DNA from: Escherichia coli
Lineage (GTDB): Bacteria; Pseudomonadota; Gammaproteobacteria; Enterobacterales; Enterobacteriaceae
Reading direction: 5' to 3' (one strand)
Length of the DNA: 64,000 bases
Assembly (NCBI RefSeq): GCF_003334385.1
Contig: NZ_QOWN01000004.1
Under the pieces are notes generated by a model. The model made no database searches. It saw only the letters and a list, made by a program, of their open reading frames with translations, and was not told the origin of the DNA. Both the position numbers and the translations under genes were made by a program. How positions within the stretch are numbered: position 1 is the stretch's first letter; each line of letters starts with the position of its first letter. This document shows, one piece after another, positions 1 to 3,857 of this stretch.

Positions 1-151
1 CTTTCATGTCGACCTTGTAGTATTTAACGAACAGATCGATAACCAGTTTTGTCAGCCATCCTGCCCGCTTGCTTGCGCCCCAACCCGCCAGGCGAGTAAG
101 CCATAGTTTCGGCAGAATGTACTGTAGCGAAAGTTTAAATGAATTTAACAA
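1..151 (-). CDS. psd: phosphatidylserine decarboxylase proenzyme, N-terminal 50 codons only (gene continues beyond window start)
   Basis: Reverse-strand translation reads [50 protein letters not shown], recognised as Psd N-terminus; TTG start at 151..149 preceded by GGAGG; not in ORF track because it has no stop inside the window. Confidence 0.8.
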
Positions 152-183
152 GGTAGCCTCCAGGCCATTGTTTTGTCGTTCCT

Positions 184-205
184 GATCCGGCCTACATGCC
201 GGATC
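184..205. repeat. perfect 8-bp-stem palindrome (gatccggc-ctacat-gccggatc) at the rsgA-psd junction, REP-like
   Basis: inverted repeat read directly in sequence between rsgA stop (248) and psd start (151). Confidence 0.4.
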
Positions 206-247
206 CTGAAAAAAAGGGGACGATTCTAACGACGGTTAGCTTAATTG

Positions 248-1300
248 TCAGTCATCCGTATCAGAAAAGTTTTTACGCGTTTTTACCTGCGCCATGCTTT
301 CCAGAATACGGTGATAGTTTTCGAAACGGGTTTCCGCGATTTTCCCTTCCTCAACCGCTTCCCGGATAGCGCAGCCCGGATCGGTATCGTGTTTGCAATC
401 GCGATATTTACACAGACCTAAATAGTCATGGAATTCGACAAAGCCCTGAGTGATTTGTTCCGGCTCCAGGTGCCAGAGGCCGAACTCACGCACTCCTGGG
501 GAGTCAATCACATCACCGCCGTGCGGGAAGTGATACAGCCGAGCGGCGGTCGTGGTGTGCTGACCGAGCCCCGAGTTGTCAGAGATATCGTTGGTCAGGA
601 TCTCTTTTTGCAGCCCCAGCAACGCATTCAGCAGGCTGGATTTGCCGACGCCAGACTGCCCGGCAAAAATGCTGATGCGCCCGGTCAACGCCTCTTCCAG
701 CGGTTTTAGCCCATCCTGAGTATGGCTGGAAACCATCAATACGCGATAACCGATATTGCGGTAGATATCCATCTGCTCGTTGACGAACGCCATGCCTTCG
801 TCGTCCAGCAGGTCTATCTTGTTGAGCACAATAATCGGCTCAATCTGCAAGGTTTCGCAGGCCACCAGGTAACGGTCGATAATATTGAGCGACAGCTCCG
901 GCAAAATGGCGGAGACAATGACAATCTGGTCGATGTTGGCGGCAATAGGTTTTACGCCGTCGTAGAAATCCGGACGCGTCAACACCGAGGTACGCTCATG
1001 CACCGCTTCCACGATCCCTTTGACATTTACGCCTTCCGCCGCCGGTTTACCCGGACGCCAGACTACGCGGTCGCCGGTTACCAGCGAACGGATGGTACGG
1101 CGAATATTGCAGCGGTGAACGTCGCCATCGGCGGATTCCACATCAGCGTGCATACCAAAGCGGCTGATGACGATACCTTCATCAGGCTCGCCAAACAGAT
1201 TGTCGTCGTAGTCGGGCTTCTCCTTAGACGTTTTAAGACGACGCTGGTGATTGGCGTTCACGCGGCGCTGCTGGCCTTTGGAGAGTTTATTTTTACTCAA
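248..1300 (-). CDS. rsgA: ribosome small-subunit-dependent GTPase A
   Basis: ORF track 248..1333; translation matches RsgA/YjeQ (GTPase motifs GQSGVGKSS); start trimmed to in-frame TTG giving the 350 aa I recall. Confidence 0.9.
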
Positions 1301-1394
1301 TCGTACAGACTCCTGGTCGCCCCTGATGGGCAAAACATCTATGATACACGCAATTGTGGATCAATATAGTCACTGTGAATGGGTGGAAAATAGC

Positions 1395-1940
1395 ATGAGT
1401 GCCAATGAAAACAACCTGATTTGGATCGATCTTGAGATGACCGGTCTGGATCCCGAGCGCGATCGCATTATTGAGATTGCCACGCTGGTGACCGATGCCA
1501 ACCTGAATATTCTGGCAGAAGGGCCGACCATTGCAGTACACCAGTCTGATGAACAGCTGGCGCTGATGGATGACTGGAACGTGCGCACCCATACCGCCAG
1601 CGGGCTGGTAGAGCGCGTGAAAGCGAGCACGATGGGCGATCGGGAAGCTGAACTGGCAACGCTCGAATTTTTAAAACAGTGGGTGCCTGCGGGAAAATCG
1701 CCGATTTGCGGTAACAGCATCGGTCAGGACCGTCGTTTCCTGTTTAAATACATGCCGGAGCTGGAAGCCTACTTCCACTACCGTTATCTCGATGTCAGCA
1801 CCCTGAAAGAGCTGGCGCGCCGCTGGAAGCCGGAAATTCTGGATGGTTTTACCAAGCAGGGGACGCATCAGGCGATGGATGATATCCGTGAATCGGTGGC
1901 GGAGCTGGCTTACTACCGCGAGCATTTTATCAAGCTGTAA
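1395..1940 (+). CDS. orn: oligoribonuclease
   Basis: ORF track 1251..1940; start trimmed to ATG giving [19 protein letters not shown]..., 181 aa as recalled for Orn. Confidence 0.93.
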
Positions 1941-2065
1941 AATTTTTCCTGGTCACGTAAGCGCCGGAATCCACTTGCGGCGGCGTGATTTTGACGCTAA
2001 ATTGAACGTCTTGCTGATAATTTCAGCACTTGAGATAAAAACGCAAAAAAAACTTTTTTGGGGGG

Positions 2066-2093
2066 TTGCAGAGGGAAAGATTTCTCGTATAAT
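2066..2093 (+). promoter_or_regulatory. candidate sigma70 promoter of the tRNA-Gly operon (-35 TTGCAG, 16-bp spacer, -10 TATAAT, GC-rich discriminator GCGCCTCC)
   Basis: hexamers read in sequence about 58 bp upstream of first tRNA; A/T-run upstream resembles an UP element. Confidence 0.55.
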
Positions 2094-2150
2094 GCGCCTC
2101 CCGTAACGACGCAGAAATGCGAAAATTACGAAAGCAAAATTAAGTAGTAC

Positions 2151-2226
<76 letters not shown>

Positions 2227-2262
2227 AAATTTGAAAAGTGCTGCAAAGCACAGACCACCCAA

Positions 2263-2338
<76 letters not shown>

Positions 2339-2374
2339 AAATTTGAAAAGTGCTGCAAAGCACAGACCACCCAA

Positions 2375-2450
<76 letters not shown>

Positions 2451-2719
2451 AATTCTTCTCTCAATAAAATATCCACAGCGACGCGATGCGTTATTGCTGG
2501 TTTTTGTTGTCTCTGACAAACTCTTGTAAACAGAGTTATCCACAGCCTCAGGCTGTAATCTTAATTTCAAAGAAACTTCGCACGGTGAATAGTATTTTTT
2601 TAACCTATTGATAGATAAGTTAAAAATTAAGATTCCGTTTTGTCGAGTCGATCACTTGACGATTTTATTCGTCTTGAATTGCAATGCGTTTTTATTTTTA
2701 TTCACAAGCTGTGGATGAA

Positions 2720-3857
2720 TCAGGCGTCACGCGGTAACCCTTTTTCAATCACCCGAACCAGACGCTGTTTTTTCGGCAATTGCACTTCGACTATGCACGC
2801 ATTTCGTCTCTCTATTTGCTGCGCAATCGCCCACGCTATGTGCTCATCGAGAAGTGGGAGCTCACCTTTACGACTTTCCAGCGCTGTCAAAATCGTTTCA
2901 TCCCAAGGGGCATTGCCTAATGCTACGGCGATATTACGCAGCCAACGCAGGTGACCAATACGACGAATCGCCGATCCTTCCGTGACTTTTAAAAACTTCT
3001 CTTCGCTCCAGGCGAATAACTCAATGAGTTCCGGTGCGTGTAGCGGCTTACGCGGGCTGAAATCCTCTTCTGTGGTGAGTTGTGAATAGCGATTCCACGG
3101 GCAGATAAGCTGGCAGTCATCGCAACCGTAAATACGGTTTCCCATTAACGGTCGCAACTCTTCCGGGATCGCCCCTTCAAGTTCGATGGTGAGATAAGAG
3201 ATACAGCGGCGAGCATCGACGGTATATGGCTCGACGATGGCACCGGTCGGGCAAATCGTCATACAGGCCACGCATTTGCCGCATCCTTCCTCGACTGGTT
3301 GATCCACGGGCAGCGGAATATCGACCAGCAATTCGCCTAAAAAGAAGAACGAACCGGCCTCGCGATTGAGGATAAGTGAGTGCTTACCTGTCCAGCCGAG
3401 CCCAGCTTTTTCAGCTAACGGGCGCTCGAGAATAGGCGCAGAATCGACAAACGGTCTAAAATTCAGCGAAACACAATGTTGCTGAATCATCTCGCCCAGC
3501 TTTTTGAGTCGGTTGCGCAGAAGTTTGTGATAGTCACGGCCCAGCGCATAACGGCTAACATAGCCGAGTTTGGGGTTTTTCAGCGTGCTGGCAAATGCGG
3601 CGTTAGCAGGAAGGTAATTCATCCGCACGCTGATCACGCGCAGCGTACCGGGCAATAACTCATGAGGGCGAGCGCGCAGCATACCGTGACGTGCCATCCA
3701 GTCCATTTCGCCGTGGTATTGTTTGTCCAGCCATGCTTGCAGTTTGGGCTCGGACTCGCTGAGATCGGTATCGGTAATACCTACCTGCTGAAAGCCCAGT
3801 TCCAGCCCCCACTGTTTAATTTTTTGCGCTAACTGATTGAGATCGAGGGGCTCTGAC

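Follow-up and report, generated by a model that had tools for sequence, protein, structure and literature searches.

A covarying stem-loop in the psd-mscM leader of Enterobacteriaceae that resembles a REP element without being one

Introduction

Repetitive extragenic palindromes (REPs) are among the described elements closest to the subject of this report, a short hairpin between rsgA and psd in a 64,000-nucleotide stretch of Escherichia coli DNA (contig NZ_QOWN01000004.1 of assembly GCF_003334385.1). The whole of this stretch is referred to below as the window, and coordinates are positions in it unless stated otherwise; the stretch is K-12-like, and adding 4390209 to a window position gives the NC_000913.3 coordinate. 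In E. coli, a REP is defined by a GTAG placed before an imperfect palindrome of 29-37 nt that contains an AA/GC bulge, and there are about 600 dispersed copies (PMC8266576). The GTAG of E. coli REPs tolerates no mutation (PMC8266576).

The gene downstream of the hairpin, psd, provides the last step in the synthesis of phosphatidylethanolamine, the major membrane lipid of E. coli. Two promoters have been described for psd-mscM, a sigmaE-dependent one inside rsgA (psdPsigmaE) and a proximal one, psdP2, which is activated by CpxR and is also the source of basal expression (Hassoun et al., 2021; PMC8138132). Elsewhere, the CpxR regulon paper merely lists psd, as positively regulated, and the gene is absent from the text of Rhodius 2006. 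The regulation of psd known so far is transcriptional only, via sigmaE and CpxR. The promoter study (PMC8138132) does not mention the hairpin, and every fusion in it that reaches the psd start includes the element; as a practical point, the same is true of every published psd reporter fusion reaching that start.

An initial annotation, made from the sequence alone, had noted the hairpin and proposed that it is a REP-like element for mRNA stability or processing within an rsgA-psd co-transcript. Here we compare the locus across Enterobacteriaceae and with described classes of RNA hairpin, and weigh what the element may do.

Results

A stem-loop maintained by pairing

The hairpin has a perfect 8-bp stem and a 6-nt loop at positions 184-205 (plus strand GATCCGGCCTACATGCCGGATC, composed of GATCCGGC-CTACAT-GCCGGATC). 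It sits inside the 97-nt spacer between rsgA and psd, 32 nt ahead of the psd TTG start codon. Read along the gene strand, the order is rsgA stop, TAGAAT, CGTCCCC, T7, CAG, hairpin, AGGAACGACAAAACAATGGCCTGGAGGCTACC and TTG; on the plus strand, the hairpin is followed by CTG and then A7 (209-215). The initial annotation was exact in its description, both in placing the hairpin between the rsgA stop and the psd TTG and in noting a T-run ahead of the stem on the gene strand. The 34-nt sense RNA spanning 211-178 folds with -18.5 kcal/mol (z = -6.7 relative to dinucleotide shuffles). A bare 8-bp palindrome is unremarkable at the scale of the window, which holds 13 perfect 8-bp hairpins against 6.65 +/- 2.6 in mononucleotide shuffles, and it is the comparative evidence that shows more than chance.

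For this comparison, 80 Enterobacteriaceae loci were fetched via RsgA and their rsgA-psd spacers extracted. Of the 80 loci, 78 have a stem-loop at the corresponding place, and in nearly every unique sequence it lies 15-23 nt after TA(G/A)AAT and 15-26 nt before CTGGAGG. Stems range from 5 to 10 bp, loops are mostly 4-6 nt, and the 80 loci contain 45 distinct 5' arms, including GATCCGGC in Escherichia and Citrobacter, GATCCGACG in Kluyvera, TCCGGCG in Enterobacter, CCCCGC in Klebsiella, GCCTGGTT in Atlantibacter and AGGCTC in Pluralibacter.

RNAalifold recovers the helix independently from a plain MAFFT alignment of 69 distinct sequences (alignment A1). When the E. coli structure is placed on this alignment, 88.6% of the cells are paired, compared with 14-51% in controls in which the partner was slid along the alignment, and seven of the eight pairs have changed on both sides. 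Compensatory cells number 60 against 13.5 +/- 3.0 in shuffles, with 0 of 500 shuffles reaching 60, although the sequences are related and these shuffle figures therefore overstate independence and are not to be read as probabilities. The case is carried by the slid-partner controls and by the count of independent arms.

The strand on which pairing is maintained can be read from the wobble pairs. G·U pairs make up 50 of the 529 pairs in the stems, and in the alignment G·U and U·G are far more frequent than A·C and C·A. The sense strand is more stable than the antisense strand in 58 of 70 sequences (means -15.1 and -12.7 kcal/mol, respectively). Together, the G·U pairs and the folding advantage of the sense strand point to selection on the mRNA-strand RNA, and selection on duplex DNA or on an antisense transcript does not fit them. 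The proposal of an RNA-level element on the gene strand is upheld by this evidence. With compensatory pairing found across species and on the transcribed strand, as looked for in a conserved structured RNA, we conclude with high confidence that the hairpin is a sense-strand RNA helix in the psd leader, kept by its pairing and not by its sequence.

Resemblance to REP elements

Locally, the likeness to a REP is strong. Of the 16 bases compared with the REP head TGTAGGCCGGATAAGG, 15 agree in the sense strand, and the plus strand, compared with the genuine REP at 18944-18979, resembles a REP tail (ATCCGGCCTACA) fused to a REP head (TGCCGGAT). Like the REP elements y, z1 and z2, which are components of bacterial interspersed mosaic elements (BIMEs), the hairpin is a short, GC-rich extragenic palindrome that is transcribed in mRNA. 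Its sense strand contains TGTAGGCCGGAT-AGG, its GCCGGAT/ATCCGGC pairing is that of the REP outer stem, and it is presumed to act as REPs are classically held to act, through a stem at which 3' exonucleases stall.

The arrangement of these parts is nevertheless different. The GTAG (195-192, minus strand) lies in the loop with a stem arm on each side, whereas in REPs it precedes the palindrome. GCCGGAT forms the 3' arm of the hairpin instead of the 5' arm, and nothing downstream pairs with it; the sequence 3' of GTAG plus GCCGGAT offers no partner arm. The stem is a perfect 8 bp, lacking both the AA/GC bulge and an inner stem, and the whole hairpin measures 22 nt against the 29-37 nt of REPs; genuine REPs in the window, such as that at 18944-18979, show outer stem, bulge and inner stem. 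Whereas REPs are dispersed and variably present, the 76-nt region that holds the hairpin, the unit for which copies were counted, is present as a single copy and keeps its locus from one genus to the next. A covariance model of the hairpin finds one instance in the window, and the hairpin has no adjacent inverted partner of the kind seen in BIME arrays. The GTAG itself mutates freely within E. coli, being lost in O157:H7, and Citrobacter amalonaticus has an identical stem with the loop ATGAAC, without GTAG.

The K-12 feature table (NC_000913.3) has no REP at the hairpin, but it has none at the genuine REP either, so its silence is uninformative. The latter is a canonical REP between rnr and rlmB (NC_000913.3 4408900-4409500, locus L082) that carries no repeat feature in the RefSeq table.

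We reject membership of the REP family because the GTAG is in the loop and is variable, the stem is short and perfect, and the region is single-copy. The REP-like label of the initial annotation, taken as family membership, thus fails on architecture, copy number and loop variability, though it may be apt as a functional analogy, and the comparison with REP families that it had called for matched no REP family architecture. The resemblance to a REP head is best explained by a CCGG-centred, GC-rich stem to which one E. coli lineage has added two or three substitutions in the loop. The lesson is that a few loop substitutions in an unrelated, locus-specific hairpin can produce a strong local match to a REP head.

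Terminators and RNA families

An intrinsic (Rho-independent) terminator is likewise a GC-rich hairpin adjoining a T-run. It differs from the psd-leader hairpin in the side on which that run lies: here the gene strand has its T-run 5' of the stem, and what comes after the stem on the opposite strand is an A-run. Directly after the stem come AGGAAC (gene strand) and CTGAAAAAAA (opposite strand), neither of which is a terminator U-tract. We accordingly reject an intrinsic or bidirectional terminator. A terminator scan of both strands of window 1-1500 returned 0 terminator-like sites, and the earlier remark that this is not a canonical terminator on the gene strand can be extended to both strands.

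In window 1-3000, no Rfam 15 family matches the hairpin even at E <= 10. The only matches in this interval at that threshold are three tRNA-Gly genes and a sub-threshold YrlA. The tRNA genes are the tandem tRNA-Gly(GCC) genes glyV, glyX and glyY (2151-2447); the YrlA match, which covers two of these genes and reaches 40 bits where the gathering score is 69, is almost certainly a tRNA-like artefact.

Promoters and other leader features

The features of the rsgA-psd region are collected in Table 1. The start of psdP2 was placed from distances given in PMC8138132, which put it 41 nt below the CpxR box and 197 nt downstream of the sigmaE start; the sigmaE start near 428 likewise follows from the distances in that paper. 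The -10 of psdPsigmaE is the target of mutagenic primer ebm1808, which changes TCGAA to TAGAG (PMC8138132). The sigma-70 promoter predicted from the sequence would start near 216, and its -35 element overlaps the rsgA stop codon.

Table 1. Coordinates of the hairpin and of neighbouring features in the window
Feature	Position	Strand	Details
Core stem-loop	184..205	minus	mRNA 5' arm GAUCCGGC (205-198), loop AUGUAG (197-192), 3' arm GCCGGAUC (191-184)
Extended helix (predicted only)	179..210	minus	UUC (210-208) with GAA (181-179), AG/AG internal loop around the core stem
rsgA coding sequence	248..1300	minus	stop TGA 250-248
psd coding sequence, 5' end	1..151	minus	TTG start 151-149; continues past the window edge
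psdPsigmaE, inside rsgA	428..461	minus	-35 GGAACAA (461-455), -10 TCGAA (438-434), start ~428
psdP2 unit	231..286	minus	CpxR box GTAAAAACGCGTAAA (286-272), candidate -10 TAAGCT (243-238), start ~231; box from mutagenic primers (PMC8138132)
Near-consensus sigma-70 promoter (predicted)	223..251	minus	CTGACA (251-246), 17-nt spacer, TAGAAT (228-223); 10/12 matches in promoter scan
C4 run and T7 run	209..219	minus	C4 (219-216), T7 (215-209); just 5' of the hairpin, directly after TAGAAT; kept across genera including hairpin-less Erwiniaceae
Nearly invariant, mostly single-stranded tract	167..184	minus	CAGGAACGACAAAACAAU, between the hairpin and the translation-initiation hairpin; first C (184) is the last stem base
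Invariant translation-initiation hairpin	147..172	minus	Shine-Dalgarno GGAGG (161-157) and TTG start (151-149); one pair varies (GU:59, AU:10)

Both proximal promoter units are conserved. The CpxR box is kept in 79 of the 80 loci, 78 of which have a TAnnnT hexamer at a constant distance of 28 nt beyond the box, and TGACA-17-TA(G/A/C)AAT is kept in 77 of 80. An insertion of about 24 nt parts the two units in a group comprising Kluyvera, Pseudocitrobacter, Trabulsiella and Yokenella; each unit is intact there, and the sigma-70 unit stays whole where the insertion shifts it from the rsgA stop. The published 'P2' fusion seems to hold two overlapping promoters (223-286, minus strand), which suggests a source for CpxR-independent basal expression.

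The psd promoters lie upstream of the hairpin, which therefore forms part of every psd-mscM 5' leader. It is carried by transcripts from psdP2 and psdPsigmaE and by any read-through from rsgA, at about +27 to +48 counted from the start near 231, or about +12 to +33 from the putative start near 216. The description of the hairpin as lying within an rsgA-psd co-transcript stands insofar as read-through from rsgA would carry it, and falls short in leaving out psdPsigmaE and psdP2.

Among E. coli, the homopolymers ahead of the hairpin vary in length (C4-5, T6-7). Beyond it, the weak psd TTG start and the GGAGG are embedded in the initiation hairpin, whose loop contains a GGA; about 21 nt upstream of this GGA is another, invariant one (CAGGAAC, 184-178). 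Two GGA motifs at such a spacing have the geometry typical of paired CsrA sites. In the searchable literature, we found no paper linking CsrA crosslinking and immunoprecipitation sequencing (CLIP-seq) to psd.

An upstream open reading frame was considered and dropped. It would begin at AUG 168-166 (minus strand), run for seven codons (MAWRLPC) and overlap the psd start with its stop, an arrangement that had raised the idea of translational coupling. The AUG is not conserved, reading AUA, CUA, AAG or UUG in other genera, and the reading frame was rejected on that account; G/A variation at this site fits pairing in the Shine-Dalgarno hairpin instead. MAWRLPC is probably not a real leader peptide.

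Variation within E. coli and phylogenetic extent

The 76-nt region is present in one copy in each of 5426 of 5426 complete E. coli genomes, and in 4296 of them it is at least 99% identical to the window. Variation within the species was examined in six divergent E. coli sequences, one of them a locus from the genome collection (L005). Their loop variants include ATTTAG (in O157:H7), CTCTAC and ACGTAT. The stem stays paired throughout, one strain having a change in the 3' arm that gives a G·U pair, and one pair of the Shine-Dalgarno hairpin has become U·G.

Further afield, the hairpin is present in Cronobacter and Shimwellia and was not found in the Erwinia, Mixta and Pantoea loci examined (Erwiniaceae). 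Erwinia and Mixta retain TACAAT, the C-run and T-run, and the Shine-Dalgarno hairpin. Two Enterobacteriaceae loci, from Citrobacter sp. Awk 4 (L037:2573-2765) and Intestinirhabdus alba (L017:2590-2960), have an insertion inside the stem after CAGGATCCGC that replaces the hairpin with a much larger structure. Judging by the sequences of ERIC primers, we take these insertions to carry an enterobacterial repetitive intergenic consensus (ERIC)-like element (GTGAATCCCCAGGAGC...GTGACTGGGGTGAGCG). They appear to be two independent events at the same spot.

This distribution indicates that the hairpin was gained at about the base of the Enterobacteriaceae and is maintained by selection, yet dispensable in some backgrounds. 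TCAGGA directly flanks both sides of an 18-nt core, TCCGGCATGTAGGCCGGA (183-209, minus strand), in the manner of a target-site duplication. The Erwiniaceae are without the whole TCAGGA-flanked segment, which is compatible with an ancient insertion origin of the hairpin.

A candidate role in RNA decay

The best available guess for the function, unproven, is that of a stability element acting by structure only. The hairpin would act as an RNA-decay barrier that separates the rsgA and psd segments. An endonuclease could act on the A-rich single-stranded stretch of leader beyond the stem, after which 3'-to-5' exonucleases would stall at the stem and the upstream RNA would be spared. The stem would also give the psd-mscM leader a stable folded 5' domain. 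We tentatively favor such a structure-only barrier to 3'-to-5' exonucleases at the rsgA/psd boundary, working like a REP or an intercistronic stabilizer without being one, while putting its chances at somewhat below even.

This preference was reached largely by elimination. The stem and loop sequences vary freely, which argues against a sequence-specific ligand for the hairpin. A riboswitch, a thermosensor or an alternative pairing with the initiation region is rejected because the stem varies and the initiation region is invariant. An insulator that keeps the initiation region accessible is unsupported: in transcripts from 231, 216 and 428, the Shine-Dalgarno sequence, start codon and A-rich tract have the same predicted unpaired probabilities whether the stem is intact, deleted or disrupted. 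An obstacle to RNase E scanning is weakened by the finding that scanning RNase E readily bypasses simple orthogonal stem-loops (PMC9943677). With switch, insulator and RNase E obstacle all weakened, the exonuclease barrier is left as the most economical, and a classic, role. A protective role at the 5' terminus would hold at best for transcripts with the putative 216 start. T-run and hairpin each occur without the other, so that they need not be linked.

Several observations weigh against an exonuclease barrier at the gene boundary. Where insertions part the psd leader from the rsgA stop (Kluyvera group, L054), the hairpin stays with the leader, and this fits a role directed at psd at least as well. 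The Erwiniaceae do without the hairpin, and two lineages tolerate the ERIC-like insertion that destroys the stem, so it is not indispensable. The 3' ends or decay intermediates that a barrier would leave at the 3' base of the stem do not appear in the Term-seq tables of Adams et al. (2021; PMC7815308), which contain no psd or rsgA entry and no coordinate within 4,390,300-4,390,499; this is a weak negative, from one dataset covering three growth conditions with abundance thresholds below which rsgA may fall. The supplements of SMRT-Cappable-seq and Cappable-seq contain no psd or rsgA entry or coordinate. The initial annotation had been ready to give up its proposal if no transcript ends lay near the hairpin and no REP family matched. 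REPs are indeed unmatched and Term-seq shows no 3' ends, but the P2 start gives a 5' end about 26 nt upstream.

Alternative explanations

That the hairpin travels with the leader is also the natural starting point for a psd-specific platform in the 5' untranslated region (5'-UTR), which we consider possible but doubtful. Here the stem would serve to place the CAGGAACGACAAAACAA tract, which is invariant and single-stranded, and the structured initiation region, tuning translation of Psd and MscM and not the decay of upstream RNA; it might mark the boundary of a ribosome standby site, or contribute to a site bound by CsrA or by Hfq together with a small RNA. The confinement of the hairpin-CTGGAGG distance to 15-26 nt, the near invariance of the flanking tract and of the Shine-Dalgarno/TTG hairpin, the U-run on one side of the stem with the A-rich tract on the other, and the two GGA motifs at a CsrA-like spacing would all suit such an arrangement. 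It is less easily reconciled with the in silico result, in which breaking or removing the stem alters the predicted accessibility of neither the Shine-Dalgarno sequence nor the start codon nor the A-rich tract, or with the Erwiniaceae, which have the same initiation-region hairpin without the stem-loop. The lack of conservation in stem and loop speaks against the hairpin itself as a sequence-specific ligand site, its variability beside an invariant initiation region leaves no room for a conserved switch, and the literature search on CsrA gave no link to psd. A co-transcriptional role, in which the nascent-RNA hairpin modulates pausing or promoter escape, strikes us as distinctly unlikely. In this case TAGAAT, at about +4 to +9 in transcripts from P2, might be recognized as a sigma-70 pause element, or the T-run might allow slippage for starts near 216. 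A TAGAAT-like -10, the C-run/T-run and the hairpin do follow in fixed order and tight spacing in 77 of 80 loci, transcripts from the TGACA-17-TAGAAT promoter would have the T-run at about +2 to +8, and homopolymer lengths vary within E. coli. A T-run at such a position supports reiterative transcription at pyrBI, codBA and upp. The features are separable, however: the C-run/T-run is kept in hairpin-less Erwinia and Mixta, and the hairpin persists in two loci without TAGAAT (L019 and L074). Termination at the T-run is not possible for a hairpin that folds only once that run has been transcribed, Term-seq shows no premature 3' end in the leader (Adams et al., 2021), and the psdP2 fusion is without strong dependence on guanosine tetraphosphate (ppGpp) or DksA (PMC8138132).

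The REP-head match and the tail-to-head appearance of the plus strand, together with the TCAGGA repeats, the ERIC-like elements inserted at the same spot and the absence from Erwiniaceae that implies a single gain, could also be the traces of a degenerate REP/BIME or other small palindromic insertion, functionless and retained by chance or gene conversion. We think this very unlikely. A neutral relic would decay, yet pairing has been kept through 45 arms with compensatory and G·U changes; the GTAG and the REP-head likeness are limited to some E. coli lineages, as the loops ATTTAG in O157:H7 and ATGAAC in C. amalonaticus illustrate; and the architecture that defines a REP is missing. Scarcely credible, in our judgment, is a palindrome that acts as DNA, whether as the operator of a dimeric regulator downstream of the promoters, as a cruciform or as a Dam-methylation-sensitive site. 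A perfect palindrome just 3' of promoters does stand in a typical roadblock position, and E. coli has two GATC sites 18 nt apart, one at each palindrome end. But the half-site sequence is not conserved between genera, Salmonella and Klebsiella lack the GATC sites, and the 50 G·U pairs with the sense-over-antisense advantage indicate RNA and not duplex DNA.

Discussion

A leader helix kept by compensatory change in the Enterobacteriaceae sampled suggests a further RNA-level layer in the control of psd, or a device that uncouples the decay of the rsgA and psd messages. The element is uncharacterized, being absent from Rfam and from the psd literature searched, and it is a simple single helix of a kind already familiar. 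As a finding it is modest, relevant to the fields of phospholipid homeostasis and mRNA decay.

A more ambitious reading, which we regard as unlikely, would join the stem-loop, the invariant C-run/T-run and the invariant CAGGAAC...GGAGG tract into an undescribed post-initiation control module for phosphatidylethanolamine synthesis. Such a module might sense pyrimidine nucleoside triphosphates through start-site choice or slippage at CCCCTTTTTTT, or might depend on CsrA, or Hfq with a small RNA, acting on the two GGA sites with the hairpin setting their geometry. If this is true, the output of Psd/MscM would be tied to metabolic state in addition to its control by sigmaE and Cpx.

Among described systems other than REPs and terminators, the stabilizing 5'-UTR hairpins of the ompA type resemble the psd hairpin in that each is a stem-loop within the 5' leader of an mRNA related to the envelope. 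Hairpins of this type act only within a few nucleotides of the 5' end, whereas the psd-leader stem would be preceded by about 26 unpaired nt in transcripts from the start placed near 231, or by 6-11 nt in those from the putative start near 216. The cis-regulatory leader families of Rfam resemble it in having a conserved, covarying structure in a 5'-UTR, and differ in that the psd-leader element is a single simple helix without a conserved loop or bulge. Intercistronic or 3'-proximal stabilizers without a U-tract, such as the malE-malF REP and processed Rho-dependent ends, differ from the psd hairpin on two counts: no 3' end has been mapped at the base of the psd-leader stem, and a promoter lies between rsgA and the hairpin, so that most RNAs bearing the hairpin may contain no rsgA. 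With these stabilizers, the psd-leader hairpin has in common that it is a stable, GC-rich hairpin between genes of the same direction, that it has no terminator function, and that its sequence is free to change as long as the stem is kept.

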